Positions 10,355 through 44,411 are shown, counted from the first letter of the stretch. The stretch is 56,884 bases of DNA from Kofleriaceae bacterium (GCA_048500355.1 JASNYD010000006.1:608211-665094), one strand, 5' to 3'. The notes: generated by a model from the sequence alone, not told the origin. Numbers and translations are program-made.

Positions 10355-10361
10355 CGCGGGA

Positions 10362-19571: not shown

Positions 19572-20958
19572 TCGGAGCGACCGAATGCCCGTTCGGATCG
19601 AAGTTGACCCCCGCTCACCTCGCTGTCAAGCCGCCCTCCGTCGCGCGGCCGTGGCGCTGCTCGTGCTGCTCGCCCTCGCCGGCACCGCCGCCGCCGCCCC
19701 CCTCACCCTCGACGAGGCGGTGCGCCTCGCCCTCGACACCTCCGAGGACGTACGCGCCGCACGCGCCCGCCGCGCCCAGGCCGACGCCGGCGTCACCGCC
19801 GCGCGCGCCGCGCTCCTGCCCGGCCTCACCCTCACCGGCTCGTACACGCGCCGCGCCCGCGAGGTGACGCGCAACGTCGGCGGCGAGGACGTCACGATCC
19901 AGAGCGCCAACGCCCTGGGCGCCAACCTCACCGTCGCCACCACGCTCTTCGACGGCCGCGCCTACCCGCTCCTGCGCGCGGCCCGCCGCCAGCGCGACGC
20001 CGCCACGCTCGACGAACAGGAGCGCCGCCGCCAGATCGCGTTCGGCGCGGCCGCCGCCTTCCTCACCGCGCTCGGCCACGAGCGCGTCGTCGACGCCGCT
20101 GTCCGTCGCCAGGAGTTCGCGGTCGCCCGCCAGCGCGACGCCGCCGCCCGCGTCGACGCCCGCCTGGTCTCCACCAACGATCGCACCCAGGCCGATCTCG
20201 AGGTCGCCACCGCCAGCCGCGAGCTCGCCGGCGCGCGCGCCGCCCTCGCCGTCGCCTACGCCGAGCTGGCGTGGTGGATCGGCGGCGACGTGGCCGGCCC
20301 CCTGGTCGAGCCCGATCGCCTCCACGCGACCGCGAGCGCGCCCCAGCCCGATCCCGCCGGCCTCGCCGACCTCGCCCACCGGCAGCGGCCCGACCTCGCC
20401 GCCACCCGCCTCCGCGTCGACGTCGCCCGCGAGCTCGCCGCCGAGCCCGGCCGCCGCGCCTGGCCGACCCTCGACCTGATCGGCCAGTACCGCCTCACCA
20501 ACGAGGCCGGCCTCTCGGGTCACAACACCGACTGGCTGGTGACGCTCAGCGCCACCTGGGAGCTGTGGGACGGCGGTCGCCGCGGCGCCGACGCCCGGGC
20601 CCGCGCGCTCGACGTCGAGCTGGCCCACCTCGACGTCAGCGCCGCCGATCGCCGCGCCCGCGCCGAGCTCGCCGCCGCCCGGGCCCGCCTCGACGGCGCG
20701 CGCGCCGCCCTGCCCCCCGCCGAGCAGGTGGCGGCGGCCGCGGCCCAGCACGCCGACGAGGTCGCCGTCCTCTACGCCCAGGGCCTGGCCCGCGCGCTCG
20801 ACGTGGTCGACGCCGGCGCCCGCCGCTACGATGCCGAGGTGGCGGTCGCCCGGGCCCGCGTCGAGCTCGCCGCCGCCTGGCTCGAGCTGGGCCTGGCCAC
20901 CGGCGCCCCGCCCCTCGCGACCCCGACCTCGCCCTCACCCGACGGAGACTCGCCGTGA
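19555..20958 (+). CDS. TolC-like outer membrane factor of an RND efflux system
   Basis: The ATG at 19555 is preceded by GGGGGGAGGTGG. The signal peptide reads ...RRAAVALLVLLALAGTAAAAP. Typical OMF repeats follow (LTLDEAVRLALDTSEDVRAARARRAQADAGVTAARAALLPGLTLTGSYTRR). An alternative ATG is at 19585. Confidence 0.8.
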   Translation: MLRTSIRSDRMPVRIEVDPRSPRCQAALRRAAVALLVLLALAGTAAAAPLTLDEAVRLALDTSEDVRAARARRAQADAGVTAARAALLPGLTLTGSYTRRAREVTRNVGGEDVTIQSANALGANLTVATTLFDGRAYPLLRAARRQRDAATLDEQERRRQIAFGAAAAFLTALGHERVVDAAVRRQEFAVARQRDAAARVDARLVSTNDRTQADLEVATASRELAGARAALAVAYAELAWWIGGDVAGPLVEPDRLHATASAPQPDPAGLADLAHRQRPDLAATRLRVDVARELAAEPGRRAWPTLDLIGQYRLTNEAGLSGHNTDWLVTLSATWELWDGGRRGADARARALDVELAHLDVSAADRRARAELAAARARLDGARAALPPAEQVAAAAAQHADEVAVLYAQGLARALDVVDAGARRYDAEVAVARARVELAAAWLELGLATGAPPLATPTSPSPDGDSP

Positions 20959-22289
20959 ACCGTCCCGCCCGCCTCGCCCTCTGTGCGCTCCTCCTCGCCC
21001 CGGCGCTGGGCTGCGGCGACGGCAAGGCTGGCGGAAAGCCACCGGCGCGCCGCGAGGTCAAGTTCCCGGTGGAGGTCCGCCCGGTCGAGCTGCGCGCCGT
21101 CGAGTACGGCGTCAACGCTCTGGGGACCATCGACGTGTTCGAGCGGGTCCAGGTCACCGCGCGGGTCGCCGGCGTCGTCGACGCGGTCAAGTTCACCGAG
21201 GGCGACGTCGTGACGCGGAACCAGGTCCTGGTCGCGATCGATCCGGCGCGCTTCGCCCTCGCCGAGCGCCAGGCCCGAGCCGCCGTCGATCGCGCGCGCA
21301 TCGCCGTCACCGACGCCGAGGCCGGCCTCGCCCGCCGCGAGTCGGCGGACCGCAGCAACCCCGGCCTCATCCCCGGCGAGGAGCTCGAGACCTGGCGCAA
21401 CCGGGTGGCCGCGGCCAAGGCCGACCTCGCCGAGCGCGCCGTCGCCCGCGATCGGGCAGCCCTCGACCTCAAGGACGCCTACGTCCGCGCCCCCATCGCC
21501 GGCGAGATCGAGTCGCGCCAGGTCGCGACCGGCGCCTACGTCCAGCCCGGCACCGTGCTGGCCACGATGGTCCGCCGCGAGCCGCTGCGCCTGCGCTTCG
21601 ACGTGCCCGAGGCCGAGGCCGCGCCGATGGCCAAGGGCGGGCTCGCCCGCTTCACGATCACCGGTCACGACCACGTCTTCACCGCCACGATCGTGCATGT
21701 GGCGGCCGCCGCCGAACCGACCTCGCGCATGGTCCGCGTCACCGCCGAGATCGATGACCCCGACCGCGCCCGCCTGCGCGCCGGCGGGTTCGCCCAGGTC
21801 GTCGTTCCGGTGGGCGGCACCGCCCAGGCCCCGGTCATCCCCGAGACCGCGATCCGCCCCAGCGAGCGGGGCTTCCTCGCCTTCGTGGTCGAGGGCGAGG
21901 TCGCCCGCGAGCGCATCCTCGAGCTCGGCCTGCGCACCGCCGACGGCCTGGTCGAGGTCCGCCGCGGCCTCGCCTCCGGCGAGCAGCTCGTCGTCCGCGG
22001 CGCCGAGGCGCTGCGCGAAGGCGCGCCGATCCGCCTCGGCGTCAAGCCGGGTCAGGGCGGCCCCGGCGGCCCAGGCGGCCCCGGCGGCCCCGGCGGCCGC
22101 GGCGGCAACGGCGGCCCCGGCGACAAGGGCGGCCCCGGCGGCAAGGGCGGCGACACGCCGGGCCCGCCCGCGGCCGCGCCCGCCCCCACCGCGCCGGCGC
22201 CCGACGCGCCCTCCCCGGCCCCGCCGTCCCCGGCCGCGCCCGCCGGCGCCGCACCCGCCCCCGCCGCGCCGCCCGGGGGGCCGCGGTGA
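20955..22289 (+). CDS. RND efflux periplasmic adaptor (membrane fusion protein), lipoprotein-type, with Gly/Pro-rich C-terminal tail
   Basis: GTG start by GTGA overlap with the OMF stop. Lipobox LLAPALGCGDG. MFP-like beta-barrel and lipoyl motifs (VRAPIAGEIESRQVATGAYVQPGTVLATMV). The tail is GGPGGPGGPGG.... Confidence 0.85.
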   Translation: MNRPARLALCALLLAPALGCGDGKAGGKPPARREVKFPVEVRPVELRAVEYGVNALGTIDVFERVQVTARVAGVVDAVKFTEGDVVTRNQVLVAIDPARFALAERQARAAVDRARIAVTDAEAGLARRESADRSNPGLIPGEELETWRNRVAAAKADLAERAVARDRAALDLKDAYVRAPIAGEIESRQVATGAYVQPGTVLATMVRREPLRLRFDVPEAEAAPMAKGGLARFTITGHDHVFTATIVHVAAAAEPTSRMVRVTAEIDDPDRARLRAGGFAQVVVPVGGTAQAPVIPETAIRPSERGFLAFVVEGEVARERILELGLRTADGLVEVRRGLASGEQLVVRGAEALREGAPIRLGVKPGQGGPGGPGGPGGPGGRGGNGGPGDKGGPGGKGGDTPGPPAAAPAPTAPAPDAPSPAPPSPAAPAGAAPAPAAPPGGPR

Positions 22290-25200
22290 ACATCACCGAG
22301 ATCTGCATCCGGCGACCCGTCTTCGCCTGGATGATCATGCTGGCGACCGTGCTGTTCGGCGTGGTCGCCATCGGCCGGGTCGGCGTCTCGCAGTACCCCG
22401 ACGTCGACTTCCCGACGATCAGCGTCGGCGTCACCTGGGAGGGCGCCGCTCCCGACGTGATGGAGGCCGAGGTCATCGAGGTCATCGAGGAGGCGGTGAT
22501 GCAGGTCGAGGGCGTGCGCGCGGTCAACTCCAGCGCGCGCCAGGGCCAGGCCTCGGTGACCATCGAGCTCGACATCGACCGCCCGGTCGATCTCGCCTTG
22601 CAGGACGTGCAGACCCGCGTCGCCCAGGCCCAGCGCCGGCTGCCGGTCGACATGGATCCGCCGACGATCTCCAAGACCAACCCCGAGGACCAGCCCATCA
22701 TGTGGGTCGGCCTGTCGGGGCCCTACTCGCGCGCGCTCCTCACCGACACCGCCAAGTACGAGATCAAGGAGCGCCTGCAGACCCTGCCCGGCGTCGGCGA
22801 GGTCACGCTCGGCGGCTTCCTCGAGCGCAACGTCCGCATCTGGCTCGACGCCGCCGCCCTCGCCCGCCACAAGCTGACCCCCGCCGACGTCCAGGCCGCG
22901 CTCCAGCGCGAGCACGTCGAGCGCCCCGCCGGCCGCATCGACGCCCGCGGCCGCGAGATCACCGTGCGCGTCCTGGGCGAGGCCTTCGACCTCGCCACGC
23001 TGCGCGACATCATCATCACCCGCATCGACGGCGCGCCCATCCGGCTCGGCGCCGTCGCCGTGGTCGAGGACGGCTTCGAGGACGAGCGACGCATCGCCCG
23101 CAGCCTCGGCTTCCCGGTCCAGGGCATCGGCATCCGCAAGCAGCGCGGCGCCAACGCGGTGGCGGTGGCCCAGGCGGTGCGCGCCGAGCTGGTCAAGATC
23201 AACGACCGCCTGCCCGAGGGCATGGTGGCCGCGGTCAACTTCGACTCGGCGCGCTTCATCGAGGACACCGTCCGCCACATCGAGATCGAGCTGATCATGG
23301 CGGTCCTGCTCACCGCGCTGGTGTGCTGGATGTTCCTGGGCTCGCTGTCGAGCACGCTCAACGTGATCCTGGCGATCCCGATGTCGTTACTCGGGACGAT
23401 CGCCGCGATCTACTTCCTCGGCTTCACCCTCAACACCTTCACCCTGCTCGCGCTGTCGCTCGCGGTCGGGATCGTCGTCGACGACGCCATCATGGTGATG
23501 GAGAACATCTACCGCCACGCCGAGATGGGCAAGCCCGCGGCGCAGGCCGCCCGCGAAGGCACGCGCGAGATCACCTTCGCCGCCCTGGCCGCCACCATCG
23601 CCGTCGTCGCCATCTTCGTGCCGGTCGTGTTCATCGAGGGCGTCACCGGCAAGTACTTCATGCAGTTCGGCGTGACCCTGTCGATCGCCGTGCTCCTGTC
23701 CTACGTCGAGGCCATCACCCTGGCCCCGGCCCGCTGCGCCCAGTTCCTGCGCGCCGGCCGCCACGACCGCATGTGGCTGGGGCAGCAGGTCGACCGCGGC
23801 TTCGCCACCCTGGCCCGCGGCTACCGCTGGCTGCTCACCCGCGCCCTGCGCTGGTCGTGGGTCGTGCTGCTGGCCGCCGCCACCTCGATCGTCGGCCTCG
23901 TCCACGGCGTGCAGTCGCTGCCCAAGGAGATGGTGCCGGCCCAGGACCAGAGCCGGCTCATGGTCCGCATGTTCACCGAGGTCGGGACCTCGCTCGAGGA
24001 GACCGACCAGGTCTTCCGCCAGGCCGAGGAGTTCATCAACGCCCAGCCCGAGGTCCGCCGCACGATGGCGATCGTCGGCGGCTTCGGCGGCGGCAACGTC
24101 AGCCAGGTGATCGTCATGACCTCGCTGGTGCCGCGCTCCGAGCGCCAGGTCAGCCAGGCCGAGTTCGCGACCCGGTTGCGGCGCAACCTCTCCGGCATCG
24201 CCGGCCTGCGGGTGGTGGTCCAGGACCTGTCGCAGTCGGGCTTCACCGCCAACCGCGGCTTCCCGGTCGAGGTCAGCGTGCGCGGCCCCGACTGGCCGAC
24301 GCTGGTCGACGAGGCCCTGCGCCTGCGGGACGCGCTGGCCGAGAGCGGGATGGTGATGGACGTCGACACCGACTACGAGCTCGGCATGCCCGAGCTGCGG
24401 CTGCTCCCGCAGCGCGACCGCGCCGCCGATCTCGGCATCTCCGTCGACGACATCGCCACGGCGGTCAACACGATGATCGGCGGCGTCCGCGCCGGCAAGT
24501 ACAGCTCCGGCGGCCGCCGCGTCGACGTCCGGCTCAAGGTCCGCCGCGATCAGCGAGCCAGCCCCGACGCCCTGGGCCAGCTCTACCTGCGGGCGCGGAC
24601 CGGCGAGATGATCCCGCTCTCGACCCTGGTCGAGCTGGAGGAGCGGCCGGCGCTGCAGTCGATCACCCGGCGCGACCGCGAGCGCGCCATCACGATCACC
24701 GCCAACGTCGCCCCCGGCTACTCCCAGCAGGACGCCCTGACCAAGGTCCGCGAGCTGAGCAAGACCCTGCCCCCCGGCTACAAGGCGGTGCTCGGCGGCG
24801 CCAGCGCCAGCTTCCTCGAGTCGTTCGCGGGGCTCGGCTTCGCCTTCCTGCTCGGCGTGGCCGTCGCCTACATGGTGCTCGGCTCGCAGTTCAACTCGTT
24901 CCTCCACCCGGTCACCGTGCTGACGATCCTGCCGCTGTCGCTGGTGGGCGCGGTGTTCGCCCTGCTCTACAGCGGCCAGACCCTCAACATCTTCTCGATG
25001 ATCGGCCTCCTCCTCCTGGCCGGCATCGTCAAGAAGAACTCGATCATCCTCGTCGAGTACGCCAACAACGCCCGCGACCGCGGCCTCGACGCCCGCGCCG
25101 CGATGATCGAGGCCGGCCCCACCCGGCTGCGCCCCATCCTGATGACCTCGATCGCGACCATGACCGCGGCGGTGCCCGCCGCCCTCGGCCTGGGCGAGGG

Positions 25201-25348
25201 CAGCGAGACCCGCACCCCGATGGCGATCGCCGTCATCGGCGGCCTGGCGGTGTCGACCGCGCTCAGCCTGTTCGTGGTCCCCGCCTTCTACGTCGTCGCC
25301 GACGCCGTGCGCCGCCGCCTCGGCCTGGGCGGCTCGGCCGCGCCCTGA
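22286..25348 (+). CDS. RND efflux permease, AcrB/HAE1-like
   Basis: GTG/TGA overlap with the adaptor gene. MNITEICIRRPVFAWMIMLATVLFGVVAIGRVGVSQYPDVDFPTISV... is a typical AcrB N-terminus. 1020 aa with ~12 TM helices. Confidence 0.95.
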   Translation: MNITEICIRRPVFAWMIMLATVLFGVVAIGRVGVSQYPDVDFPTISVGVTWEGAAPDVMEAEVIEVIEEAVMQVEGVRAVNSSARQGQASVTIELDIDRPVDLALQDVQTRVAQAQRRLPVDMDPPTISKTNPEDQPIMWVGLSGPYSRALLTDTAKYEIKERLQTLPGVGEVTLGGFLERNVRIWLDAAALARHKLTPADVQAALQREHVERPAGRIDARGREITVRVLGEAFDLATLRDIIITRIDGAPIRLGAVAVVEDGFEDERRIARSLGFPVQGIGIRKQRGANAVAVAQAVRAELVKINDRLPEGMVAAVNFDSARFIEDTVRHIEIELIMAVLLTALVCWMFLGSLSSTLNVILAIPMSLLGTIAAIYFLGFTLNTFTLLALSLAVGIVVDDAIMVMENIYRHAEMGKPAAQAAREGTREITFAALAATIAVVAIFVPVVFIEGVTGKYFMQFGVTLSIAVLLSYVEAITLAPARCAQFLRAGRHDRMWLGQQVDRGFATLARGYRWLLTRALRWSWVVLLAAATSIVGLVHGVQSLPKEMVPAQDQSRLMVRMFTEVGTSLEETDQVFRQAEEFINAQPEVRRTMAIVGGFGGGNVSQVIVMTSLVPRSERQVSQAEFATRLRRNLSGIAGLRVVVQDLSQSGFTANRGFPVEVSVRGPDWPTLVDEALRLRDALAESGMVMDVDTDYELGMPELRLLPQRDRAADLGISVDDIATAVNTMIGGVRAGKYSSGGRRVDVRLKVRRDQRASPDALGQLYLRARTGEMIPLSTLVELEERPALQSITRRDRERAITITANVAPGYSQQDALTKVRELSKTLPPGYKAVLGGASASFLESFAGLGFAFLLGVAVAYMVLGSQFNSFLHPVTVLTILPLSLVGAVFALLYSGQTLNIFSMIGLLLLAGIVKKNSIILVEYANNARDRGLDARAAMIEAGPTRLRPILMTSIATMTAAVPAALGLGEGSETRTPMAIAVIGGLAVSTALSLFVVPAFYVVADAVRRRLGLGGSAAP

Positions 25349-25390
25349 CGCCGGCGCGCGCGTCGTGGCGTGCCGGCGCGCCGCGCGCGA

Positions 25391-25774
25391 TCAGCCGGCC
25401 GTGGCCGCGATCAGCGCCAGCACCCGCGCCCGCAGCGCCTGCGGCGCCCACGGCTTGGCGATGACCTCGTCGACGACACCGGCGGCCTGGGCCGCGACCA
25501 GGGTCGGCTCGTCGTCGAAGCCGGTCACGACCACGACCCGCAGCCGGGGCCAGCGCGCGCGCGCGGCCCGGGCCAGCTCGACCCCGGTCGGCCGCCCCAG
25601 GGCCAGGTCGCTGACCAGGGCGTCGGCCGGCCAGCGCTCGAGCACCGCCAGGGCCTCGGTGGCGTCGGCGGCGGCCACCACCTCGGCGGCGCGGGCGAAG
25701 GTCCGCACCATCAGGTCGCGGTTGTACAGCTCGTCGTCGACGACCAGGATGCGCGGCGGCGGACCGTCAGCCAC
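25391..25774 (-). CDS. Response regulator receiver (CheY-like, stand-alone REC)
   Basis: [13 protein letters not shown].....ALVSDLALG...VVVVTGF....KPW has the receiver Asp and Lys positions. It overlaps the 3' end of the upstream HK gene by 8 nt. Confidence 0.85.
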
Positions 25775-27137
25775 CGCCGACCTCGTCGCCGAGGCCCGCT
25801 GCCCGTGATCCTGGCGCGACCGCGAGCGGCGCCGGGGCCTCGACCCGCGGCCGCTCCGCCGCGCCGTCGCTCGGGCCGCGCACCGGGATCGTGACCACGA
25901 ACTCGGCGCCAGCGCCGGCGCGGTTGGCCCAGCGCAAGGAGCCGCCGTGGGCGCGCACGATGTTGGCGCAGATCCACAGCCCGAGGCCGGTGCCCTCGCC
26001 GACCTCCTTGGTGGTGAAGAACGGATCCGAGATCTTCTCCATCAGGTCGGGCTTGATGCCGGGCCCCGAGTCACAGATGGTGACGCGGATCGCCGCCCCG
26101 TCGTCGACGGTCTCGATCGCGACGTCGATCCACCCGGTGCCGGCGATGGCCTGGGCGGCGTTGGTCAGGATGTTCATGAACACCTGGTTGACGTGGCCGG
26201 CGTTGCACAGCACCCGCGGCACGCCGGGCGCGATCCGGCGCCGGACCTCGACCCGGTTCTTGAGCAGGGGCCCGATCAGGTTGAGCGTGGTGTCGATGCC
26301 GCCGACGATGTCGGTCTCGGCCAGCTCGTTACCCCCGGTGCGCGCGAAGCTCTTGAGATCGGCGACGATGTCGGCGGTGCGCTCGGCGCCGGCCCGGATC
26401 GACCGCAGGAGCTTGCGCCAGTCGGCGACCAGGAAGTCGAGCTCGACCTCGGCCTTGAGCGCGTCGAGCGCGGCCCGCAGCTCGGGCGGCAGCGCCGCGC
26501 CATCGACCAGCGCCACCAGCCGCAGCAGGTCCTCCATGTACTGGCCGAGGAAGTCGACGTTGCCGTAGACGAAGTTGATCGGGTTGTTGAGCTCGTGGGC
26601 GATGCCGGCCACCAGCCGGCCCAGCGACGACATCTTCTCCTGGTGGACGAGCTGGGCCTGGGCCGCGCGCAGCTCGTCGGTGCGCTCCCGCACCTTCTCC
26701 TCGAGGTCGCCCTTGGCCCGCCGCTCGTGCTCGAGCGCGACCTTGAGCCGGCGCTGGATGCGGACGTCGGCGGTGACGTCGCGGTAGGTCTCGACCACCA
26801 CCGCCTCGCCGTCGTCGAGCTCGACCGGGGCCGCGGTCACGATGAAGGTGAGGTCCTCGCCGTCGCCGCGGCGGGCGCCGATCTCGTCGACCCGAAGCCG
26901 CCGCCCGACCTCGCGCACCTTGCAGCCCAGGCACGCCTGCTCGCAGATCTCGAGCTTGAACAGCTCGTGGCAGCGGGCCCCGGCCTTGACCTTCTCGGCG
27001 AGCTGGCGCCCGCGCAGGCCGGTCAGCGCCTCGTAGGCCTGGTTGTAGTGGAGCACCCGACGCTCGGCGTCGAGGACGACGGCGGCGTCGACGCTGCCAT
27101 CGAGGAGCTGGGTGATCTGGTGGAACAGCTTGGCCAA
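25767..27137 (-). CDS. PAS-domain sensor histidine kinase (cytoplasmic), with a 4-Cys PAS
   Basis: H-box: [21 protein letters not shown]-box: [16 protein letters not shown]-boxes: DSGPGI and GTGLGL. The N-terminal PAS carries C-x8-C-x3-C-x2-C ([19 protein letters not shown]). The ORF-track start is TTG at 27137 (see the PAS 4-Cys finding). Confidence 0.9.
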
Positions 27138-27186
27138 GCGGGGGGCTCGGGGGGCGGAGCGCGGGATGGTGCCGGATCGGTCCGGA

Positions 27187-27684
27187 TCAGGCCTCCGCCA
27201 GGAACGACAGGTAGCGCTCGGGCAGGTCGTCGAACTCCATGGTCGCGCCGCACTGCGAGCAGGCGAACTGCGGGATCTCGTGCTTGCCGCCGGTCTGCGT
27301 GACGTCGACCAGCTTCTCCTCCTCCTGGCCGCAGCGGTCGCACACGTAGGGCGCGAAGAAGGAGCGGATGCGAGCGTTGCCGCGGAAGTTGTAGATCATG
27401 TTGAGCTGGGTCACGATCGCCGGCGAGCAGTGCGAGAACGACAGCTCGGTGACGTGGGGCAGATCGCGGACGAAGTTGACCCACTCGCGCACGCCGCAGC
27501 TGTTGATGCGGCGGACCTCGCCGAGCTGGAACGCCACGGCGCCGCGCAGCCGCCGCCGCAGCTCGACGAAGTCGGCGTTCTCGTCGATCTCCCCCACGAA
27601 CTCGACGGTGGTCAGGCCGGGGCGTTCGCGGATGCGCCACGACAGCGCGACCGGCTCGGGCCCCCGCACGTCCGCCGTCGCCAT
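27187..27684 (-). CDS. STAS-like (anti-sigma-antagonist fold) domain fused to a C-terminal C4 zinc ribbon
   Basis: GGAGTGAGG RBS. STAS-like core: ...[15 protein letters not shown]...[22 protein letters not shown]...[15 protein letters not shown]. Zinc ribbon: CDRCG...CSQCG. It is a paralogue of 33748..34695. Confidence 0.7.
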
Positions 27685-27688
27685 CGCC

Positions 27689-28612
27689 TCACTCCATCCG
27701 CTCGGGCGACTTCTCGAAGTGCTGGCGGACCTCGGTCCGCGCCGCCTCGTCGAGCGACGCCGGCTCGATCAGCACGTCCTTGACGTCGAAGCGCACCGGC
27801 TCGGGGCTGGCGAAGACGCCGCGCTTGACGACGCGGCCCATGCGCCCGGCGAGGCCCTGGTAGGCGGCCTTCGACGGCGAGGCCCAGCCCGAGATCGCGC
27901 CGCCGCCGCCGAAGCGGGTCACCGCGGTCCCGACCGAGGCGACCGTCGCCGCCGGCACCTTGGCGTTGACCTGGACGAAGGCGGGGTTGGGCACCGCGCC
28001 GGTGTCGAACAGCTTGGCCAGGCCCTTCTGCGAGCCGATGGGCGCGAACACCGCCTGCGCGCCCTTGTACGACGCGACCTCGGCGACCGCGGCCGTCAGG
28101 TCGGGCTTGCCGACCCGGCTGGCGAAGAAGCCGGCGTCGACCTCGGACTCGAGCATGGCGTTGTCGACGAAGCCGTTGTCGTTGCAGCCGGTCTGCACGA
28201 ACGCCAGCTTCTTGCCCTCGAGCGCCTTCATGTCGCCGCCGGCGCCCGAGAACAGGGCGTAGGTGCGGGCGCCGCTGCCGCCGATCTGGGCGTTGGCCAG
28301 CAGGTTCCAGCCCAGGTTGGTGGCGTAGCACTGGGCGTCGACGATCGCGAAGTCGACGCCGGCGCTCTTGAGGGCGCCGAACGAGGCGAACGACTTGGCC
28401 TCGGTCTTGACCCCGGTCTGGGCCTCGATCGCCTTGGCCAGGCCCTGGACGTAGGACAGGCGGTCCTGGGCGGTGCCGAACTCGACCGACGGCGCGTAGA
28501 TGCCGATCACCAGCTTGCCGGGCGCCGGCTGGGTGGTGCCGGGACGGACCACCAGGGCGACGGCCAGGGCGACCAGGCAGAGCGTCGGGATGATGATGCT
28601 GAGCTTGCGCAT
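27689..28612 (-). CDS. Periplasmic substrate-binding-like protein (PhnD/SsuA-type fold) with signal peptide
   Basis: AGGAG RBS. Signal [22 protein letters not shown]. Its stop is 4 nt from the next gene start. Confidence 0.7.
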
Positions 28613-28631
28613 GGTGTGCTCCTGGGTGCCG

Positions 28632-31283
28632 CTAGTAGCCGTAGATCCGCTTCTTGGCGTCGATCCACTTCTGGAGATCGCGCGCGCCGGCGACCCGGCC
28701 CGACGCCGAGCGCCAGGCCTCGTAGGCGTCCTTGGGCCGCCCCGCCTGGTCGTAGAGGATGCCGAGGTTGACCAGCGCCTCGGGCGGCTGGCCGCGCAGC
28801 GCCTCGAGGGCGCCGATCTTGCTCTTGTCGAGCGACAGCACCGCGCGGTTGTTGACCAGGCGACGCTTGGCGTCGTCGCTGGCGAAGCGCTCGGCGCTGT
28901 CGAGGGCCTTGGCCGCGGGCCCGGTGCGGCCGTTGCGCCAGTGGTCGAACGCGACGTACTCCCACGACGACGCGATCAGGTCGCGGACCTTGGTGCTGAA
29001 GGCGCCGGTGGCGCTGCCGAGCAGGCGGGTGAAGGTCGCGGCCGCTCGTTCGCGCAGGGTGGCGTTGTTCGAGCGGTAGTCGGCGTAGGCGCCGAAGAAC
29101 TCGGTGCCGACCTTGGCGTAGGGCGCCTTGAGGTACGCGGCCTGGTTGCCCTTGGCGGCGAGCTGCTTGAAGTACTTGCCGGCCTCGGCGGTGTCGCCCT
29201 TCTCGAGCAGGGCCAGGGCGTAGCTGAACTCGAAGGCCGCTGGCTCGGTGCCCTTGAGCAGCGAGGGCTCGCGGGTCGCGCGCTCCAGGTCGGCCACCGC
29301 CTCCGCGTCCTTGCCGGCCTTGATCGCCCGCCAGCCGCGGCGGAACAGGGCGAGGGCGAGGTTGCGCTTGGCCGCGGGCGCCACCTCCGGCGACTGGGCG
29401 GCGAAGCCCACGGCGATGCCGAGCTTCTCGACCGCCTCGTCGAGCTTGGTGTCGACCAGCAGCGGCGCCCACTCGGTGTAGATCTCGGCCTTCATCAGGT
29501 TCGCCTGGTTCTTGGTGGCCTCCTCGTCGGCCTCCGCGAAGTGCTGGGCGGCCCGCGCCTTGTCGGGCTTCTTCGCGCACAGGTGGGCGCGGCCGGCCAG
29601 GCGGTTGTAGAGCATGGAGTAGCCGCGGCGGTTGTCCTTGATGCGGTCGAGGTAGCGCAGCCCGCCGTCGCAGTCGCCGCGGTCGATGGCCAGGACCGCC
29701 AGGTTGAGCGCGACCATCGGCGAGCGGTCGTCGACCTTGAGCGCCTCCTCGAGGAAGGCGGCCGCGGTCTTGCCGTCACCCTTGGTGAAGGCGCCGGCGG
29801 CCTGGGCGTTGATGGTCTCGACGAGCGCGCGCCGGATCTGCAGCTCCCTGGGTCGCAGGGCCACCGCGGCCTCGAAGCGCTGGCGCGCCACCACCAGCTT
29901 GCCCTGGTTGTACTGGGCCTTGGCGCTGACCAGGTAGAGCTCGGCGGCGAGCTCGGGCGGCGCGCTGGCGAACGCCTTGCCGGCGATGAGCTGGTCGGCG
30001 GTCTTGGCGGCGTCGCCGTCGCGCCGGGCCGCCAGGTAGGCGCCGCCGAGCTCGATGCCGAGGTCGAAGCTCGACGGGTCGAGCTGGCGGCCGGCCTCGA
30101 GCTTCTCGATGGCCAGCGCCAGGTTGGTGTTCTGGGCGCCGGTCGACGGCATGCGGCGGTAGGTCTTGCCCAGCCGCACGCTGAGCTCGCTGGCGCCCGC
30201 GCCGCCGCGCATGAGCTTCTCCGCCTGCAGGTAGGCCGCCAGGGCCTGGCCCCAGTCGCGCTCCTGGAAGTAGGCGTCGCCGATGAGGATGTAGCCGCGG
30301 GGCTCGTTCTTGCGCTTCTTCAGGTACTCGTTGGCGGCCTGCCGCGCCCGCTGCGGCAGCTTCTTGGCCAGGTACGCCGAGCCGAGGTTGAAGTAGACCG
30401 AGCCGTTGCTGTCGATGTTGCGCGGGTTGCCCTGCAGGCGCTCGCACACGGTGATGGCCTGGTCGAACTTGCGCAGGCCGGTGTAGGCGGCGCACAGTCC
30501 GATGTCGGCGTTGGGCTGGGCGTACTGGGCCTTGCCGTGCTTGCGGACGACGGTCTCGAACTCCTTGACCGCGCGCTCGTAGTCCCGGTTGGCGGCGTCG
30601 TGCTGGCTCTCGCGCACCGCCATGCGGCCGCGCGCCAGGTACGAGAAGCCGAGCCGGATGCGGGGCAGGACGTCGCGGCTCTCGCGATCGGCGGGCCGCG
30701 CCGCCAGGTACGCCTCGTAGGCGGTGATCGTCTTCAGCGGATCGCGGTTGAAGTAGAACTCGCCCAGGATCTGCTGGTTGGAGAACAGCGAGGCCCGCTT
30801 GGCCACCGCCTTCTCGGCGACCGCGACCGCGCCCGGCTTGTCGCCGGTCGCCCACAGGAGCAGCGCCTCCTGCTCGAGGACCTCGGCGGCCTCGGGGTGG
30901 GTGCGCTTGGCCACGGTGCGGATGAACTCGAGCCCGCCCTTGTAGTCGGCCTGGATGATGAAGATCGCCGCCCGCTTGCCGTAGGCCTCGGGCGGGACCT
31001 GGGTCGGGGCCGAGCGGATGGCCGAGTCGAAGGCCGCGGCGGCGCGTCGCCAGTTGGCCTCCTCGAAGTAGCGATCGCCCTCCTTCAGGTCCTCGGCCAC
31101 GTCGGCGACGGCGGTGCCGGCGGCGAGGAGGACGAGCACGAGCCCGAGGGCGGCGGCCCAGGTGCGGGCCAGGCCGCGCGTGGCGCAGGACGTTCGCGTT
31201 GGTTCGTTCACGGGTTCCTCGTTCACGGGTTCCTCCACGGGGGCCGTCGCGGCCCGGGCCTGCCAGCGCTCAGCGTTGCGCAC
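28632..31283 (-). CDS. Secreted TPR-repeat protein (~880 aa); start uncertain (GTG at 31283 or downstream GTG giving MNEPTRTS...)
   Basis: Signal/TM ARTWAAALGLVLVLLAAGTAVADVA. Many TPR-like units follow. A 15-bp tandem duplication (EEPVNEEPVNE) sits at the 5' end. Confidence 0.8.
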   Translation of the reverse strand: MRNAERWQARAATAPVEEPVNEEPVNEPTRTSCATRGLARTWAAALGLVLVLLAAGTAVADVAEDLKEGDRYFEEANWRRAAAAFDSAIRSAPTQVPPEAYGKRAAIFIIQADYKGGLEFIRTVAKRTHPEAAEVLEQEALLLWATGDKPGAVAVAEKAVAKRASLFSNQQILGEFYFNRDPLKTITAYEAYLAARPADRESRDVLPRIRLGFSYLARGRMAVRESQHDAANRDYERAVKEFETVVRKHGKAQYAQPNADIGLCAAYTGLRKFDQAITVCERLQGNPRNIDSNGSVYFNLGSAYLAKKLPQRARQAANEYLKKRKNEPRGYILIGDAYFQERDWGQALAAYLQAEKLMRGGAGASELSVRLGKTYRRMPSTGAQNTNLALAIEKLEAGRQLDPSSFDLGIELGGAYLAARRDGDAAKTADQLIAGKAFASAPPELAAELYLVSAKAQYNQGKLVVARQRFEAAVALRPRELQIRRALVETINAQAAGAFTKGDGKTAAAFLEEALKVDDRSPMVALNLAVLAIDRGDCDGGLRYLDRIKDNRRGYSMLYNRLAGRAHLCAKKPDKARAAQHFAEADEEATKNQANLMKAEIYTEWAPLLVDTKLDEAVEKLGIAVGFAAQSPEVAPAAKRNLALALFRRGWRAIKAGKDAEAVADLERATREPSLLKGTEPAAFEFSYALALLEKGDTAEAGKYFKQLAAKGNQAAYLKAPYAKVGTEFFGAYADYRSNNATLRERAAATFTRLLGSATGAFSTKVRDLIASSWEYVAFDHWRNGRTGPAAKALDSAERFASDDAKRRLVNNRAVLSLDKSKIGALEALRGQPPEALVNLGILYDQAGRPKDAYEAWRSASGRVAGARDLQKWIDAKKRIYGY

Positions 31284-31299
31284 CGGTGCTCGCCGGTGC

Positions 31300-32988
31300 T
31301 CAGAAGACCTTGCCGATGACGAGCGTGATGTCGTCCTTGCGGATGTTGTCGCCGAAGAAGTTGGCGGCGTCGGTCACGACGGCGTCGCGGATCTCCCCGG
31401 CCTCGAGCGCGGCCGCCCGCCGCACCGAGGCCCGGAAGCGCTTCTCGCCGTACTCCTCGCCGCCGCTCGACTCGCACTCGACGATGCCGTCCGTGTACCA
31501 GACCAGGATGTCGCCGGGCATGAGCTCGGTGGTCTTGACCTCGTACTTCGACTCCTTGAGGTCGCCGAGCCGGTTGCCGCGGATCATCAGCGAGCCGAAC
31601 TCGCCCTGCCCGCCCTCCGAGGTCCGGTACAGGTAGGGGAAGTTGTGGCCGGCGTTGGCGTACGTGATCGTGCGCCGGCGGGTGTCGATGACCGAGGCGA
31701 AGCAGGTCATCACGAACTTGCGCTTGGCGCTCTGGTAGATCGCCGAGTTCATGATCTCGAGCAGCTTGGCCGGGTCGACGTTGTCGCCGTTGACGGCGCG
31801 GGCGACGTCGCACGCCGCCTTGGCCGCCGCCGTGATCATCGCCGACGGCACGCCGTGGCCGGTGACGTCGCCGATCACGACCAGGACCTTGTCGCCGACC
31901 ATGTCGTGCCACGTCCACCAGTCGCCGCCGCACTGCGACGCCGGCTGGAAGTAGCCGGCGAAGCGCAGCGTGCCCTTGTCGACCGGATCGTGGGTCGGCA
32001 CCAGGGTCTCCTGGATCGTCCGCGCCACCTCGAGCTCCTTCTCCATCGTCGCCTTCTCGGCGGTCTGCTGGAGCAGCACGAGGAGCTGGTCGGCCATGAA
32101 GTTGAAGTTCTCGCCGAGCAGGCCGAGCTCGTCGGTCGACTTGACCTCGACGCGGGCGGCCAGATCACCGCGGGCGATCTGGTCGGCCTTCCACGCCAGG
32201 AGCTTGATGGGCTTGGAGATCTGGACGCCCTGGAAGATCGCGAGCAGGGTGCCGATGAGCACGAACAGCGCGCCGAAGGCGCCGGTGCGTAGCGCGGCCT
32301 TGCGCGCCTCCTCGTCCTTGAGCTTGGCGCTCTCGCGGGCGAAGGTGTCGACCGGCGACAGGTCGTAGCCGAAGACCACGTAGCCCTGACGGTTCTCGCC
32401 CGGGTCGTCGGCCGCGGCGGCGGCCGGGCTCCAGCCGACCTGCTCGCCCGAGAACACCGGGTAGGCGAACAACAGCAGCTTGCCGTCCTCGCCGGCGGTC
32501 CAGTCGAGCGAGACGCTGATCTCGGGCTCGGTCGCGGCGGCGCGCCGCTTCCACTCCTCCAGCACCTTGGCCCACGACGCGTGCTTGACCCGCTCGCCCT
32601 CGACCTCGCCGGCGGCGTCGCAGCGGTCGTCCTTGCGCCGGCAGTACTTGATGAGGTTCTGGACGCGACCGACGACGTAGACCAGCTTGAGCTCGGCGTC
32701 GTGCTTGAGGGTGTCGTCGACGATCTCCTTGATCTCGACGTCCTGGGTGTTGATGAAGTACGAGCGCAGGCCCTGGCCGAAGAAGATCGTGTTGGTCTCG
32801 CCCTTGCTCTCGAGCTGCTTGCGGTACTCGGTGATCTTGTCCTTGGCCGCGCGATCGTAGGCCTCGCGGATGTTGCACGCGTTCAGCAGACCGAAGCCCA
32901 CCACCGTGAGGAGGATCAGGAACGTGGTGGTCAAGATCATCTTGACCGAGATGCTCAAGCCGCCGCGCTTTGCCATTGGCCATGCCAT
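31300..32988 (-). CDS. Membrane sensor PP2C-family protein phosphatase (SpoIIE/RsbU-like) with HAMP domain
   Basis: N-terminal TM, an extracytoplasmic region and a second TM ([17 protein letters not shown]), then HAMP ([43 protein letters not shown]), then PP2C motifs (GGDWW...[14 protein letters not shown]...YANAGH...WYTDG). Confidence 0.85.
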
Positions 32989-33158
32989 GTTACGGCGTCT
33001 GGTCGGAAGGGGTCAACGAAGCGTCCCCGCGACCGGTCGGTCCATGTCCGGTGTAAAGTTCCACATGCGCCGATGTGGGTGTCCCGCGCGCACCGCCGCG
33101 CGCCTCGGCCGTCGGCGCCAGGGGTCGCATTGGCGAGCGCGCGACGCGCTCTGCTACG

Positions 33159-33725
33159 ATGCCGGGGATGGAGTCCCACCCCGCGCTGACCCAGTTCCTG
33201 ACCGAGTTCAAGCGCGTGGCCAGCGCCATCGTCGACAGCTACTTCATCGTCGACACCGAGCGCCGCATCGTCGACTTCAACCGCGCGTTCTTCGCGATGC
33301 TGCCGCGGCAGGTGGCGCGCGGCCTCAAGGGCAAGCGCTGCTTCGAGGTCATCGAGCTCAACATCTGCCGCAGCGAGTGCATCGCCCAGCAGTGCTGGAC
33401 CGACAACCGACACGTCCGGCTCGACGAGATCAGCGGCAAGGTGCTGGGCGAGCCCGACGCCAAGGAGCTGCGCTTCATCCTGTCGGCGGTGCCGATCACC
33501 GACGAGAGCGGCCAGCACGTCGGCGCCCTCGAGATCCAGCGCAACGTCACCGACGAGGCGGTGGTCCAGGTCAAGTACCAGGAGATGCTCGAGAACGAGG
33601 CCCGCGAGCGCGAGCGCCTCGCCAACCAGATCCGCGCCCGCACCAAGGAGCTGCTCGAGACCAACCAGCTCCTGCTCAAGACCCAGAAGGAGCTCCTGTC
33701 CTACAAGAAGGGCCTCTCGGCCTGA
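33159..33725 (+). CDS. Stand-alone PAS-domain protein with 4-Cys motif and C-terminal coiled coil
   Basis: It is homologous to the N-terminal PAS of the kinase at 25767..27137 ([15 protein letters not shown] versus [15 protein letters not shown]). The Cys motif is [21 protein letters not shown]. The start may be ATG 33159 or 33168. Confidence 0.65.
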
Positions 33726-33747
33726 GCGCCGGGTGCCCCCCCCGGGG

Positions 33748-34695
33748 CTACTTGCCGCTGAAGAGCAGGAACGCCAGCACGCCGATGGCCGCGAGCAGCA
33801 CGACCACGAGCACGTAGATCACGGCGCTCGACTTGGGCTGGGTCAGCGCCGGGCGCTCGGCGGGGACCGGCGTGGAGAAGCTGCCGCTGCCGGGGTTGGT
33901 GCCGGGCGAGGTGAAGTTGCCCGGCCGGCTGCCCGGGTTGGTGCCCTGGAACGAGCCCACCGGGCGCATGCCGGGGTGGGTGGTGGTCGTCACCGGCGTC
34001 ATCGACGGCCGGCTGCCCGGCTTGGCGGTGATCGACGGCGAGCTGCCGCTGGGCCGCGAGATCGACGGCAAGGACGGCACGCTGGGCAACGACGACACCG
34101 ACGAGCTGTGCAGGCTCGAGGTGCCGGTGCGCGAGCGGATCTTGGACTTCTCGCCGTTGTCACCGGAGGCGAACTCCTTGATGACGCCGTTGATCTTGTC
34201 GGGCTCGGCGATCTTCTTCTGGTTCGACAGGAACGCGAAGTACGAGTCGGCCATGTCGTCGAAGTCCATGACCAGATCGCACTCGTCGCAGCGACAGGTC
34301 GGCGGCTCGTGCGGCCCCGAGCCCATGTCGGCCGCCTCGACGAGCAGCACCTTCTCCTCGTCGCACTCGGGACAGAAGTACGGGACGTAGAAGCTCTTGA
34401 CCACGCCCGACCCGGTGAAGTTGTTGACGAGGTTGATCTGGGCGACGATCGCCGGCGAGCACTCGACGAGCACCGCGCGGGTCGCCTGGGTCTCGAGCTT
34501 GCCGAGCCAGTTGACCCAGTCGCGCACGCCACACGAGTTGATGCGCTCGATCTCGCCGAGATCGATCACCGCCGTACCCGCCGGGATCTTGTCGGTCAGC
34601 GCGGTGAGCTCGTTGTCCTCGTCGATGACACCGCTCAGCTTGACGTAGCTGACGTCGTCGCGGTGGTGGACCGACGCCTGAAACTTCTGGCTCAT
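33748..34695 (-). CDS. STAS-like plus C4 zinc-ribbon protein with Ser/Pro-rich linker and C-terminal TM anchor; paralogue of 27187..27684
   Basis: GGAGACG RBS. Shared motifs with the paralogue: [38 protein letters not shown]...[15 protein letters not shown]-terminal TM: [22 protein letters not shown]. Confidence 0.7.
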
Positions 34696-34712
34696 TGCGT
34701 CTCCGTCGACAC

Positions 34713-34735
34713 GTAATTCACGTAGCCGTGATTAC
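34713..34735. promoter_or_regulatory. Inverted repeat gtaattcacg-tagc-cgtgattac in an AT-richer 140-bp spacer
   Basis: 9/10 matching arms with a 4-nt spacer, sitting 18 nt upstream of the STAS-TM gene ATG (34695) and ~100 nt downstream of the giant TPR stop. It could be an operator, or a terminator for the TPR gene. Confidence 0.3.
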
Positions 34736-34833
34736 ACCTGTACCCTAGAACCTTCAACTCGCAAAGCATATCGTGATCGCGCCAGCGGGATCCACTCCAT
34801 GGACGTCGATCGTGGCCCGTCCCCCGCCTCGTG

Positions 34834-37800
34834 TCACGCCTGGTTCGGGGCAGCGGTGAGGTAGTCGCGTAGGCGCTGGTAGTCGTCGGACAGATAGAAG
34901 CGCACCAGGTCGGCCCCGCCCAGCACCGCGCCCAGGGCCACGGTGGCGTCGTGAGACAGGAGCATCTCGCCGGTCAGGCGCGCGATCATCCAGGTGGCGG
35001 CGGCGAAGTCGTCGCAGGCGAGGAGCCCGCCGCGCTTGGCGGCGCCCAGCATGCCGTCGATCCAGGCGTCGCCGTCGACGTCGCGGCCCCAGTTCTGGTG
35101 GCGCTCGATGACCTTCTGCGCCCGCTTGGACAGCCCCTTCACGAACTCGTTGGTCGGCGCCGGCCGCTCGCCCTCGGGCAGCAGCAGCGACTTCATGAAG
35201 TTGCCGAGCTCGGATCGCTGGCGACGGCCGAGGTGGTGGAGGAAGGCGTACCCGCCCCGCAGCGCCTCGAAGGCCCAGCCGAGGAGGAAGCGGCGCGGCC
35301 CGTCGCCCTCGCCGACCAGCGACCGGTCGATCACCACCAGGCGGCGGGGCGCCGCCACCAGCGCCACCAGGCCGGGCACGCGCTCGCCCACGAAGACCTC
35401 GGCCTCGATGGCGTCGAGCCGGGCGATGTCGGCGACCGCGACCTTGAGCCCGGGGTCGTCCATGCCCTGTACCGGGATCAGGTTCTCCCCCAGCATCGGC
35501 GGCGGGTACAGGCCGCCCAGCTCGGCCGCGGCCGCCGCCAGCACCTCGCCGAACGGATCGCGCGCCGCCGTCGTCACCAGCAGCCGCATCCGCATCTCGT
35601 CGTCGAGCGCCCGCCGCATCGGGTGGTAGGGCAACGACGCCCGCACCTTGGCGGCGGCGCCGCGATCGGACTCCTCGGCGAAGCCGAGCTGCTCCATCAC
35701 CGTCAGCGCCCGCGCCGCCCGCTCCGGCTCGCCGACGCGGGTGTAGTACGACGACAGGAGGCGGTAGGCCATCGCGTTGTGGATGTCGCGATCCACGACC
35801 TTGCGCAGCTCCGAGATCGCCTTGCCCGGGTCGTCGATGGCGTAGATCTCGGCCAGCGCCACACGATCGGGCGGGCTGTCGTCGACGCCCAGGATGCCGC
35901 GGTAGGCCTCGATCGCCGCCGGCCGGTCGCCGGACGCGAGGAGGATGCGGGCCAGGCCGCGCTGCAGCGGCACCGCCGCCGGCGGCCCGCCCTTCTCCAT
36001 CGCGGCGTGGGCGGCGTCGATGAGCAGGCCCTCGGCGCCGCGCTGGTCGCCGGCCTCGGCGGCGCGCCGCGCCAGGGCCAGGGCCGGCGGCGCGTAGCCC
36101 GGATCGTACTCGCTGGCCCGGCGGTACTGCGAGGTCGCGCCGCGAGGATCGCCCGAGGTCTCGGTGATGCGCCCGCGGTAGTAGTAGTAGCGGGCCAGGT
36201 TCTCGGGCGAGATCGCCGAGCCCGGCGCCGCCGCCAGCTCGATCACGCGATCGATCGCCGCCCGGGCGTCGGCGTGGCGCCCCAGCAGGTAGTGCTCCTG
36301 GGCCAGGCGGTAGTAGGCCTCCTCGTGGATCGGGTCGATGCGGATGACCTCGCGCAGGACCGAGATCGCGCGGTGGGGCTCCATCTCGCAGTCGGCGTGG
36401 ATCTCGGCCTGCCGCATGAGCGCGCCGACGCGCACCGCCTGCGACACGTCGCTGTGGTTCAGGAACTTGACGATGGCGTCGACCGCGTGGCTCCACCGCC
36501 GCATGTTGAGGTGGAGCGTGATCATCGCCGACAGCACCTCGAAGTCGTCGGGCGCCAGCGCCACCGCCTCGGCGTAGAGCTGCTGGGCCTGATCGAGGTC
36601 GCCCTCGCGCTCCTTCATGCCGGCCTGGGCGACGCGGACCCGGGCCAGGAAGGGCCCGGCGTCGTCGCGCTTCTTGTAGAGCTTGTCGAGCTCGCGGTAG
36701 ATCGCGTCGAAGTCCCAGGCCTCGGGGTGCTTGCGCTGCAGGTCGAGCAGGCCGTCGAGGGCCGACAGGTTGTTGGGCTTGATCTCGAGGGCGACGATCA
36801 GGCTCTCGGCGGCGCCGCGGGCGTCGCCGGTCATGTGGGCGACCACGCCGCGCCGGCGATAGAACTCGCTGCGGGTGTTGGGATCGCCCTCGCGCATGGC
36901 CTTGACCGCCAGCGCCTGGGCCAGGGGCAGCGCCCGCTGCCACTCCCCGGCGTCGAAGTAGTGCTCGAACAGGGCCTGGTTGGCGGGCAGGCACTCGGGA
37001 TCGACGGCGAGCGCGCTCTCGTAGTAGTGCATCGCCCGGTCGGGCTGGCCGAGGCGCGACTCGTAGATGCGGCCGATCTGGGCGAAGACGCCGGCCCGCT
37101 CCTTGTCGTCCTGCCACAGCTTGACCTCGAGCTCGAGGGTCTGGATGACCCGCGGCCAGTCCTCGCGCCGGCGGTAGAGGTCGCGCAGGCCGTGGACCGC
37201 CGGCAGGCACGAGGGCGAGGTCTTGATCGCCGCGTCGTAGTAGCGGATCGCGTCCTCCTCCTTGCCGAACTTGGCCTCCATCACCGAGCCGCACTTGAAG
37301 TAGAGCAGCGCCTTGAGGTTGCGATCGGTGGTGACCCGGATCTGGCGGCGGGTGACGTCGACGAACTCGGCCCACTGCTCCGTCGACTCGTAGATGCGGC
37401 CCAGGGCCTCGAGCGCCTCCTTGTTGGCGGGCGCGATCTCGAGGATGCGCTGGTAGTGCTCGACCGCGCGCGACTCGTCGCGCAGGCCCTCCTCGCTGAT
37501 CTGGGCGATGCGCTTGTGCAGGGTGGTCGCGGCGTCGCCGGCGGGGGCGGTGGCCAGGCGGTGGCGCAGGACCTCGACCAGCTTGCCCCAGTCGTGGTTG
37601 CGCTCGTACCAGCGCTCGAGCGCGTCGAGGGCCTCGACGTCGGACGGATCGATGTCGAGGATGTGCTGGTAGAGGCGGGCGGCCTCGCCGAAGTCGCGCA
37701 TCTTGGCGGCGGCGACCCGGGCGGCGCGGCGCAGCGACTCGAGGCGGCGCTCGTCGTCGCGGGTCAGGCCGGCCCGCTTCTCGTAGACCCCGATGAGCCC

Positions 37801-41265: not shown

Positions 41266-41399
41266 CCCGGAGCGGTGTCGGGGAACGGAGGATGGTGCGA
41301 GGGGGCCCCCGGCGCGCGCACCCGCCGCCGCCGCCGCTACCCCGCCGGCTCCCGGCCAGGGTTTGACCGTCGCGATCGGCGTACCGTATCCTGGAGGCG

Positions 41400-43637: not shown

Positions 43638-44380
<743 letters not shown>

Positions 44381-44411
44381 CGGCGCCGACCCTACCAAGA
44401 AACCCGCGGCC

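Follow-up and report, generated by a model that had tools for sequence, protein, structure and literature searches.

Six signalling genes of a Kofleriaceae bacterium are part of a conserved myxobacterial locus that may combine a two-component system with a partner switch

What is the function of six adjacent genes that encode, in order, a membrane phosphatase, a TPR protein, a periplasmic binding protein, a STAS protein with a putative C-terminal zinc ribbon, a PAS histidine kinase and a single receiver? The question arises from a stretch of 56,884 nucleotides of a Kofleriaceae bacterium (GCA_048500355.1, JASNYD010000006.1:608211-665094), referred to here as the window, in which an earlier note had read these genes (25391-32988, minus strand) as a self-contained signalling operon. 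In this study, the six genes were found to be the downstream part of a conserved locus of about 17 kb (25391-42338) of Haliangiales and Polyangia myxobacteria, and we lean slightly towards the view that two-component and partner-switching signalling are combined in this locus as a hybrid. The extent given to the system by the earlier note was too small, as the genes of a second STAS protein with zinc ribbon (STAS2-ZnR), a PAS-only protein, a second TPR protein (TPR2) and a GHKL protein also belong to the conserved locus.

The window has a G+C content of about 75% and contains chance long open reading frames (ORFs) in every frame, and the G+C content by codon position was therefore checked. Its STAS1-ZnR, binding and GHKL proteins were identical to those of a metagenome-assembled genome of Kofleriaceae (Myxococcota). 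The third position (GC3) gave 0.97-0.99 and the second position (GC2) 0.42-0.53 in all six cluster genes; for the six genes and four neighbours together, the ranges were 0.96-0.99 and 0.42-0.53. Homologues of all six genes were also found elsewhere at the protein level, in identical order. The coordinates of the six ORFs, with gaps of 16, 19, 4, 49 and -8 nt on the minus strand, agreed with those given before. Moreover, the six domain assignments made at that time hold, that of the binding protein indirectly, on the basis of Pfam matches, of PF12974 matches among orthologues of the binding protein and of an AlphaFold2 (AF2) fold for the first STAS protein (STAS1-ZnR), and the proposed division of the products between envelope and cytoplasm was borne out by hydrophobic-segment predictions for the phosphatase, the first TPR protein (TPR1), the binding protein and the kinase. 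The features of the locus are collected in Table 1.

Table 1. Features of the conserved locus, with positions counted from the first nucleotide of the window.
Feature	Position	Strand	Basis and remarks
HAMP-PP2C, membrane serine phosphatase of SpoIIE/RsbU/SiaA type (PP2C)	31300-32988	-	Pfam SpoIIE and HAMP; two transmembrane (TM) segments
TPR1, exported or N-terminally anchored, 883 aa	28632-31283	-	TPR Pfam families; N-terminal hydrophobic segment
Orphan periplasmic binding protein (SBP), probably of the PhnD/Phosphonate-bd family, 307 aa	27689-28612	-	PF12974 matches of orthologues; signal-like segment
STAS1-ZnR, soluble; STAS at about 10-108, then C4 zinc ribbon	27187-27684	-	AF2 model; Foldseek; invariant columns
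Cytoplasmic PAS histidine kinase (PAS-HK)	25767-27137	-	PAS_4, HisKA, HATPase_c; no TM segment
Single-domain CheY-like receiver (REC), 127 aa	25391-25774	-	Response_reg; 8-nt overlap with the kinase gene
Sigma-70-like promoter match, TTGACC-18-TAACAT	32987-33016	-	Consensus match at the 5' end of the cluster
PAS-only protein	33075-33725	+	PAS_9, PAS_4; divergent from the cluster; possible true start ATG 33159
STAS2-ZnR, paralogue of STAS1-ZnR	33748-34695	-	38% identity; S/P-rich linker; C-terminal membrane anchor
TPR2, giant cytoplasmic TPR protein, 2143 aa	34834-41265	-	TPR Pfam families; no TM segment; Pro/Ala-rich N-terminus
GHKL protein, receiver-like domain and RsbW/SpoIIAB fold (LvrC-like)	41400-42338	+	AF2 model; Foldseek; motifs

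STAS1-ZnR of the window had no direct Pfam STAS match, and among 25 STAS-ZnR relatives nine matched this model below threshold, while two long relatives exceeded the cutoff. A profile of the STAS part, searched against the PDB, gave antagonist matches that were only sub-significant. However, the identity of the domain was settled by the fold search, in which the AF2 model (predicted local distance difference test, pLDDT, 82) matched STAS antagonists, namely SpoIIAA (1tid_B, 3.8e-4), an anti-sigma antagonist of Haliangium ochraceum (4hyl) and RsbV (6m36_B), as well as TM1442 and MlaB. In the STAS-only family profile, Ser62 was aligned with the phosphorylated serine of SpoIIAA and TM1442, and the invariant motif that carries it, NSCGVREW, is kept in relatives down to 36% identity, including STAS2-ZnR. 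The cysteines C115, C118, C142 and C145 are invariant or nearly so, and residues 110-165, in which they lie, are consistent with a C4 zinc ribbon. Eukaryotic C2H2 zinc fingers, which came out on top when the full-length STAS-ZnR profile was searched against the PDB, were matched through the spacing of their cysteines; this likeness was judged compositional and rejected as homology. Furthermore, phmmer searches of STAS1-ZnR and of the binding protein against PDB sequences returned nothing or zinc-finger noise. The paralogue STAS2-ZnR has a TM segment at residues 292-310 and a weak match to the anti-sigma-antagonist model TIGR00377.

The STAS-ZnR proteins are a sizeable family that is largely missed by current domain models. 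Against 1.84 billion representatives (clusters at 50% identity), the STAS-ZnR profile gave 4148 matches at E<=1e-3; at the stricter cutoffs of 1e-10 and 1e-30, 3185 and 663 matches remained. Among them are relatives of approximately 700-750 aa with two tandem STAS units, and of nine long relatives that were scanned, two (731 and 814 aa) have a PDZ domain at the C-terminus. A literature search for STAS together with zinc ribbon found no description of this system.

The earlier note had treated the STAS protein as a generic switch that feeds a two-component output, and had missed the protein with a receiver-like domain and an RsbW/SpoIIAB-type kinase fold at the far end of the locus. The AF2 model of this GHKL protein (pLDDT 87; predicted template modelling score 0.87) has a (beta-alpha)5-like N-terminal domain, and its top Foldseek match was LvrC (9qih_B, E 5.7e-8 over 323 columns). 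Further matches were SpoIIAB (1til_E, 1.5e-6), RsbW (6m37_C), UsfX and SiaB; those to SpoIIAB, RsbW and UsfX had E values of 1e-6 to 1e-4 and target TM-scores of 0.66-0.87. The N-box residues E173 and N177 and the G2 box GAGLG are invariant, and Pfam HATPase_c_2 (PF13581) matched with 20.3 bits, below its cutoff of 27.4. Close orthologues keep D50 and S77 of the receiver-like domain with a conservation of at least 90%. This protein is linked to the STAS-ZnR proteins also far from the window: a homologue is encoded directly upstream of STAS-ZnR in 18 of the 22 most distant loci (40-46% identity). Two of these arrangements can serve as illustrations: RsbW-like, STAS-ZnR, PAS-HK and REC in L062, and PAS-HK, REC, RsbW-like and STAS-ZnR in L068.

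The SpoIIE match (PF07228) of the phosphatase reached 2.8e-42 and 145 bits against a cutoff of 25, its HAMP match 7e-14, and the motifs GDWW, DVTGHG, TDG and DDIT were seen in the translation. Two hydrophobic segments (residues 17-35 and 237-255) flank a loop of about 200 aa. The closest solved relatives, which are all partner-switch phosphatases, were the PP2C domain of SiaA (6k4e, 6e-16), Pseudomonas RssB (3eq2) and Rv1364c (3ke6).

PAS-HK carries PAS_4, HisKA (PF00512, 36 bits) and HATPase_c (PF02518, 82 bits) domains with the H-box HELNNP, and no TM segment was predicted in it. In the receiver, Response_reg (PF00072, 1.7e-17, 64 bits, residues 9-118) fills the protein, which confirms the earlier view of a single-domain product, and the canonical residues D13, D14, D56, T84 and K107 are all present. 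PAS-HK also has a cluster of cysteines (C56, C65, C69 and C72), the first three of which do not vary among 63 orthologues. The PAS-only protein has the comparable arrangement C-x8-C-x3-C-x4-C at residues 89-107, with all four cysteines invariant in 21 orthologues; thus C-x8-C-x3-C is common to both PAS domains, each with a fourth cysteine. This shared cluster suggests, as judged from sequence, a metal, Fe-S or redox input.

Whether these parts belong together was addressed by their recurrence in other genomes. A scan of one genome per species gave 145 loci with STAS-ZnR relatives, 80 of which were retrieved for comparison; all came from metagenome-assembled genomes (MAGs), mostly labelled Myxococcota or "Deltaproteobacteria" with few other labels. 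Neighbourhoods were established by tblastn with the window proteins, and the counts refer to loci with enough flank. The PP2C-TPR-SBP genes lie directly upstream of STAS1-ZnR in 37/70 loci, PAS-HK follows STAS1-ZnR directly in 55/76, and REC comes next in 35/74. The median extrapolated gaps are at most about 20 nt (approximately 7 nt between SBP and STAS1-ZnR and 18 nt between STAS-ZnR and PAS-HK), and a gap above 150 nt occurs in at most one locus per junction. TPR1 has syntenic orthologues down to about 28% identity. Because close relatives share their general gene order (in L083, for example, even the flank beyond the GHKL gene is syntenic with the window at 65% identity), only the distant loci are informative on selection. 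In the Polyangia-type loci, the order is kept at a TPR1 identity of about 28-30% with different flanking genes, and the conservation of the order thus exceeds general synteny.

The gene order recurs in Kofleriaceae, Haliangiales and Polyangia, but it is kept in modules and not as a fixed set of six. The view of a self-contained six-gene unit has to be abandoned, since the PP2C-TPR-SBP genes are facultative and REC was not detected next to PAS-HK by tblastn in the Polyangia-type loci. Judged by gene content, the STAS-ZnR and PAS-HK genes are the constant core and PP2C-TPR-SBP an accessory block. The PAS-only gene is syntenic in nearly all related loci, and TPR2 is co-conserved with STAS2-ZnR. 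Together, these three genes separate the GHKL gene from the six-gene cluster, an arrangement that recurs in related genomes. A contig with a GHKL protein identical to that of H. ochraceum likewise carried the GHKL, TPR2, STAS2 and PAS genes before the locus was cut off. As a separate observation, STAS2-ZnR, TPR2 and the PAS-only protein mirror the STAS, TPR and PAS content of the six-gene cluster, with which they are co-conserved.

From the parts list and the recurrent linkage of the genes, both of which were observed, we infer the following wiring for the hybrid. The GHKL protein would bind STAS-ZnR and phosphorylate Ser62, and the membrane HAMP-PP2C would remove this phosphate under the control of envelope signals received through its own periplasmic loop. 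The binding protein, as ligand receptor, and TPR1, perhaps as scaffold, would help to set the activity of the phosphatase. PAS-HK, possibly sensing redox state or metal through its cysteine cluster, would phosphorylate REC, the receiver-like domain of the GHKL protein, or both; REC may be a sink or a second branch. Envelope input through PP2C and cytoplasmic input through PAS-HK would thus meet in the phosphorylation state of STAS-ZnR. For the output, either the GHKL protein might act on a sigma factor from elsewhere in the genome, by release or sequestration, or the zinc ribbon of unphosphorylated STAS-ZnR might engage a target. The membrane-tethered STAS2-ZnR and TPR2 may constitute a parallel branch.

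Several observations weigh against this hybrid. The STAS, SBP and GHKL domains of the window proteins fall below Pfam thresholds, and they were identified from predicted structure, orthologues and motifs. In the window, 8.4 kb separate the GHKL gene from the six genes, and its strand is the opposite one. Moreover, phosphotransfer to the receiver-like domain of the GHKL protein is uncertain because 9 of 26 distant homologues have another residue in place of the acceptor Asp and a conserved Lys was not seen. The PP2C-TPR-SBP block is absent from 13 related loci, including those of Haliangium type, in which the PAS-only gene abuts STAS1-ZnR; STAS-ZnR would consequently work without a dedicated phosphatase there or use one encoded elsewhere. 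In a neighbour-joining tree of the 165-aa protein, the loci without PP2C are nested within those that have it, which would imply secondary loss, in a tree that is too weak to rely on. Part of the conserved order reflects phylogenetic inertia, as close relatives share wider synteny. Finally, no sigma-factor domain was present in the coding ORFs of the window that were scanned, and no other output gene was found in the window.

Two alternatives retain the STAS-ZnR protein as the switch and alter what it acts on. In the first, which is possible though unlikely, the STAS-ZnR proteins form a large class of phospho-switchable adaptors that has so far gone unrecognised, and their zinc ribbon docks on the Cys-cluster PAS-HK or on another target that is not a sigma factor; the serine partner switch would then gate a two-component pathway in place of a sigma factor, with the three or four cysteines of the PAS domain as an Fe-S, metal or redox sensor. 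The second is the linear path of the earlier note, to which we give a similarly low probability. In it, TPR1 and SBP act on PP2C, PP2C acts on STAS-ZnR, unphosphorylated STAS-ZnR acts directly on PAS-HK, and REC is the terminal component, with the GHKL protein outside the pathway. The contiguity and common orientation of the six genes, the canonical residues of REC and the STAS-ZnR/PAS-HK adjacency, which is the tightest and most widespread of the locus, all speak for such a path. However, a PP2C needs a substrate made by a kinase, and the six genes include no serine kinase, whereas the only RsbW-fold protein of the locus is the one that adjoins STAS-ZnR in the 18 distant genomes. A terminal REC is also disfavoured by the Polyangia-type loci, in which none was detected beside PAS-HK, and the papers that were read gave no precedent for a STAS protein that gates a histidine kinase.

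A third possibility, which we regard as improbable, is that two or three independent systems are merely neighbours, namely an envelope module of PP2C, TPR and SBP with its substrate elsewhere, beside a module of STAS-ZnR, HK and REC. The presence or absence of the envelope genes as a unit and the general synteny among close relatives would be explained in this way. On the other hand, where the block is present it always directly precedes STAS1-ZnR in the same orientation, at the short median distance given above, even where TPR1 has diverged to about 28% identity, and phosphatases of this PP2C subfamily normally act on STAS domains (PMC8256260). A SpoIIE phosphatase gene next to STAS-ZnR was also found apart from this block in L053, a Haliangium MAG with a main locus that lacks it: at 4495-11635, a gene for an unrelated 1744-aa protein with Ser/Thr kinase, AAA_16, TPR, GAF and SpoIIE domains is directly upstream of a third STAS-ZnR paralogue. 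This is a further independent link between a SpoIIE phosphatase and STAS-ZnR. A ferrochelatase gene follows the third paralogue in L053.

The accessory proteins of the phosphatase were assigned with different degrees of directness. TPR1 matched many TPR Pfam families and has a hydrophobic segment at residues 37-55; weak resemblances to the TPR proteins LapB, BamD, PilW and PrsT, which serve envelope assembly, were all below the model cutoffs. The binding protein of the window matched no Pfam or NCBIfam model. However, its designation as a PhnD-like exported binding protein is supported indirectly, because PF12974 (Phosphonate-bd) was matched by 14 of 26 syntenic orthologues (best E 9.4e-10) and the protein has a signal-like N-terminal segment (residues 4-22). 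Precomputed PF12974 annotation is also present on members of the family, and the SBP profile gave weak PDB matches to 2pfy, a TRAP binding protein (0.0037), and to 7t1m (0.012). That SBP and TPR1 serve transport or envelope assembly (phosphonate-like uptake, or a lipoprotein or outer-membrane process) and are merely co-expressed with the regulators is likewise improbable: although PF12974 proteins are classically components of ABC transporters and TPR1 has the sub-cutoff resemblances mentioned above, no transporter genes (ABC permease or ATPase, PhnCDE type) occur within 25391-42338, the only ABC genes of the window are more than 10 kb away and of the ABC-2 exporter type, and the two genes lie strictly between the sensor phosphatase and its likely substrate wherever the block adjoins STAS1-ZnR.

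To which known systems does the locus compare? The Bacillus modules RsbU/RsbV/RsbW and SpoIIE/SpoIIAA/SpoIIAB share with it a PPM/SpoIIE phosphatase, a STAS antagonist with a serine at the start of helix 2 and the fold of a small GHKL serine kinase. The window locus differs from them in having no sigma factor nearby, a STAS domain fused to a C4 zinc ribbon, a kinase with an N-terminal receiver-like domain, a membrane HAMP phosphatase, an embedded histidine kinase and genes in two divergent or convergent units. Like the phosphatase of the window, RsbU of Chlamydia trachomatis is a HAMP protein of the membrane, and its sensor domain is periplasmic. The RsbU/RsbV1/RsbV2/RsbW system of this species likewise has two STAS paralogues and one RsbW (PMC8256260); in contrast to the present locus, it belongs to a different phylum, its STAS proteins have no zinc ribbon, and it includes neither TPR or binding-protein partners nor an embedded two-component system.

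A likeness for the coupling of the two signalling types is found in Leptospira, where the Rec domain of LvrC, a Rec-Bergerat protein, is phosphorylated by the histidine kinase LvrB (PMC13269768). The authors term this pathway a hybrid of two-component system and sigma factor, and sequestration of a sigma factor by LvrC is proposed. A Rec and Bergerat-fold protein with a genetic or functional coupling to a histidine kinase is common to both systems, and no STAS partner or PP2C is mentioned for LvrB-LvrC in the parts of the paper that were read, unlike for the window locus. The receiver-like domain of the window protein is divergent and has no clear Lys, and LvrB is a Rec-controlled histidine kinase and not a PAS-Cys one.

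The window phosphatase finds its best match, in NCBIfam as well as in the PDB, in the HAMP-PP2C membrane phosphatase SiaA of Pseudomonas aeruginosa SiaABCD, and SiaB, a GHKL-type kinase, also matches the model of the protein at 41400-42338; SiaC, however, is not a STAS-ZnR protein. Orthology to SiaABCD was rejected, because NF038263 scored 98 bits where its cutoff is 700 and the locus has neither a SiaD diguanylate cyclase nor another GGDEF protein. AioX-AioS, LuxP-LuxQ and TorT-TorS are sensors that depend on binding proteins, in which the gene of an orphan periplasmic binding protein lies beside that of a membrane signalling protein, without transporter genes. In the window, by contrast, a PP2C takes the place of the histidine kinase as transducer, and the cluster also encodes a TPR protein of 883 aa. 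Other STAS proteins are themselves outputs switched by serine phosphorylation, which is one option here. In CapK/CapS, the STAS domain of CapS is joined at its C-terminal end to an effector domain, a winged helix-turn-helix (wHTH), and the protein is switched by a GHKL kinase (PMC13373217), and in Vibrio fischeri, SypE combines receiver, RsbW-like and PP2C domains, with the STAS protein SypA as the output (PMC8256260). Unlike in SypE, kinase and phosphatase are separate proteins in the window, and unlike in CapS, the domain fused to STAS is a zinc ribbon and not a wHTH.

Two further comparisons were negative. A role in anti-phage defence was rejected after a PADLOC scan of nine proteins, which gave nothing apart from a marginal low-complexity match, and neither paired STAS genes of RsbR/RsbS type nor an RsbT arrangement, as in a stressosome, was seen, without a dedicated pursuit of the latter system. 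Myxococcus xanthus MXAN_4562 is a HAMP-SpoIIE phosphatase (PMC2887360); a poorly targeted literature search on MXAN_4562 and the Haliangium locus found no description of the system. In the literature that was found, there was no counterpart for the STAS-zinc-ribbon fusion, for its near-obligate pairing with a Cys-cluster PAS-HK or for TPR and PhnD-type proteins as accessories of a phosphatase.

With respect to transcription, the sole sigma-70-like match between 24800 and 34000 sits just upstream of the PP2C gene, although the sigma-70 consensus is a weak guide at high G+C. Internal promoters or terminators, which according to the earlier note would split the cluster, were not matched inside it, and this is weak evidence in a GC-rich genome; terminator-like hairpins or sites numbered none, against 2.9 +/- 1.8 in shuffles. 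In the promoter match, the -10-like hexamer runs into the ATG at 32988 that is annotated as the start of the PP2C gene. Translation may in fact begin at a Met five codons further on (32976); alternatively, the mRNA could be leaderless.

On the other side of the cluster, a gene for an outer-membrane efflux protein (OEP) and an AcrB-type RND pump gene (19258-25348) converge on REC, with stop codons 42 nt apart; this flank is not kept in most related loci. Genuine genes are also overlapped by very long ORFs that run antisense to them or in another frame (for example 28500-31319 and 21697-25464, both on the plus strand); these reach 1255 aa and are rich in Arg, Pro, Gly and Ala. They are artefacts of the 75% G+C content and should not be annotated. 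Beyond the GHKL gene, the region 42387-56512 encodes an ABC ATPase, a DUF4139-like protein, a STAND-like protein of about 1400 aa with AAA_16 and HEAT, QueF and an ABC1 kinase. Elsewhere in the window, 6410-8563 encodes an AAA+ ATPase that begins with a winged-helix domain, and 3578-5686 encodes a HEAT-repeat protein; no relation of these to the cluster was seen.

In conclusion, the six genes belong to a larger locus with a STAS-ZnR and PAS-HK core. The family of STAS-ZnR proteins that bear NSCGVREW is mostly missed by domain models, and annotation pipelines could therefore be improved. The cultured species H. ochraceum carries at least the part with GHKL, TPR2, STAS2-ZnR and PAS, which offers an experimental entry point. 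Partner switches and two-component systems are usually studied apart, and descriptions of hybrids such as LvrB-LvrC are very recent. If the wiring proposed here is correct, the locus would be a conserved natural example of such a hybrid in a phylum of developmental and socially behaving bacteria.

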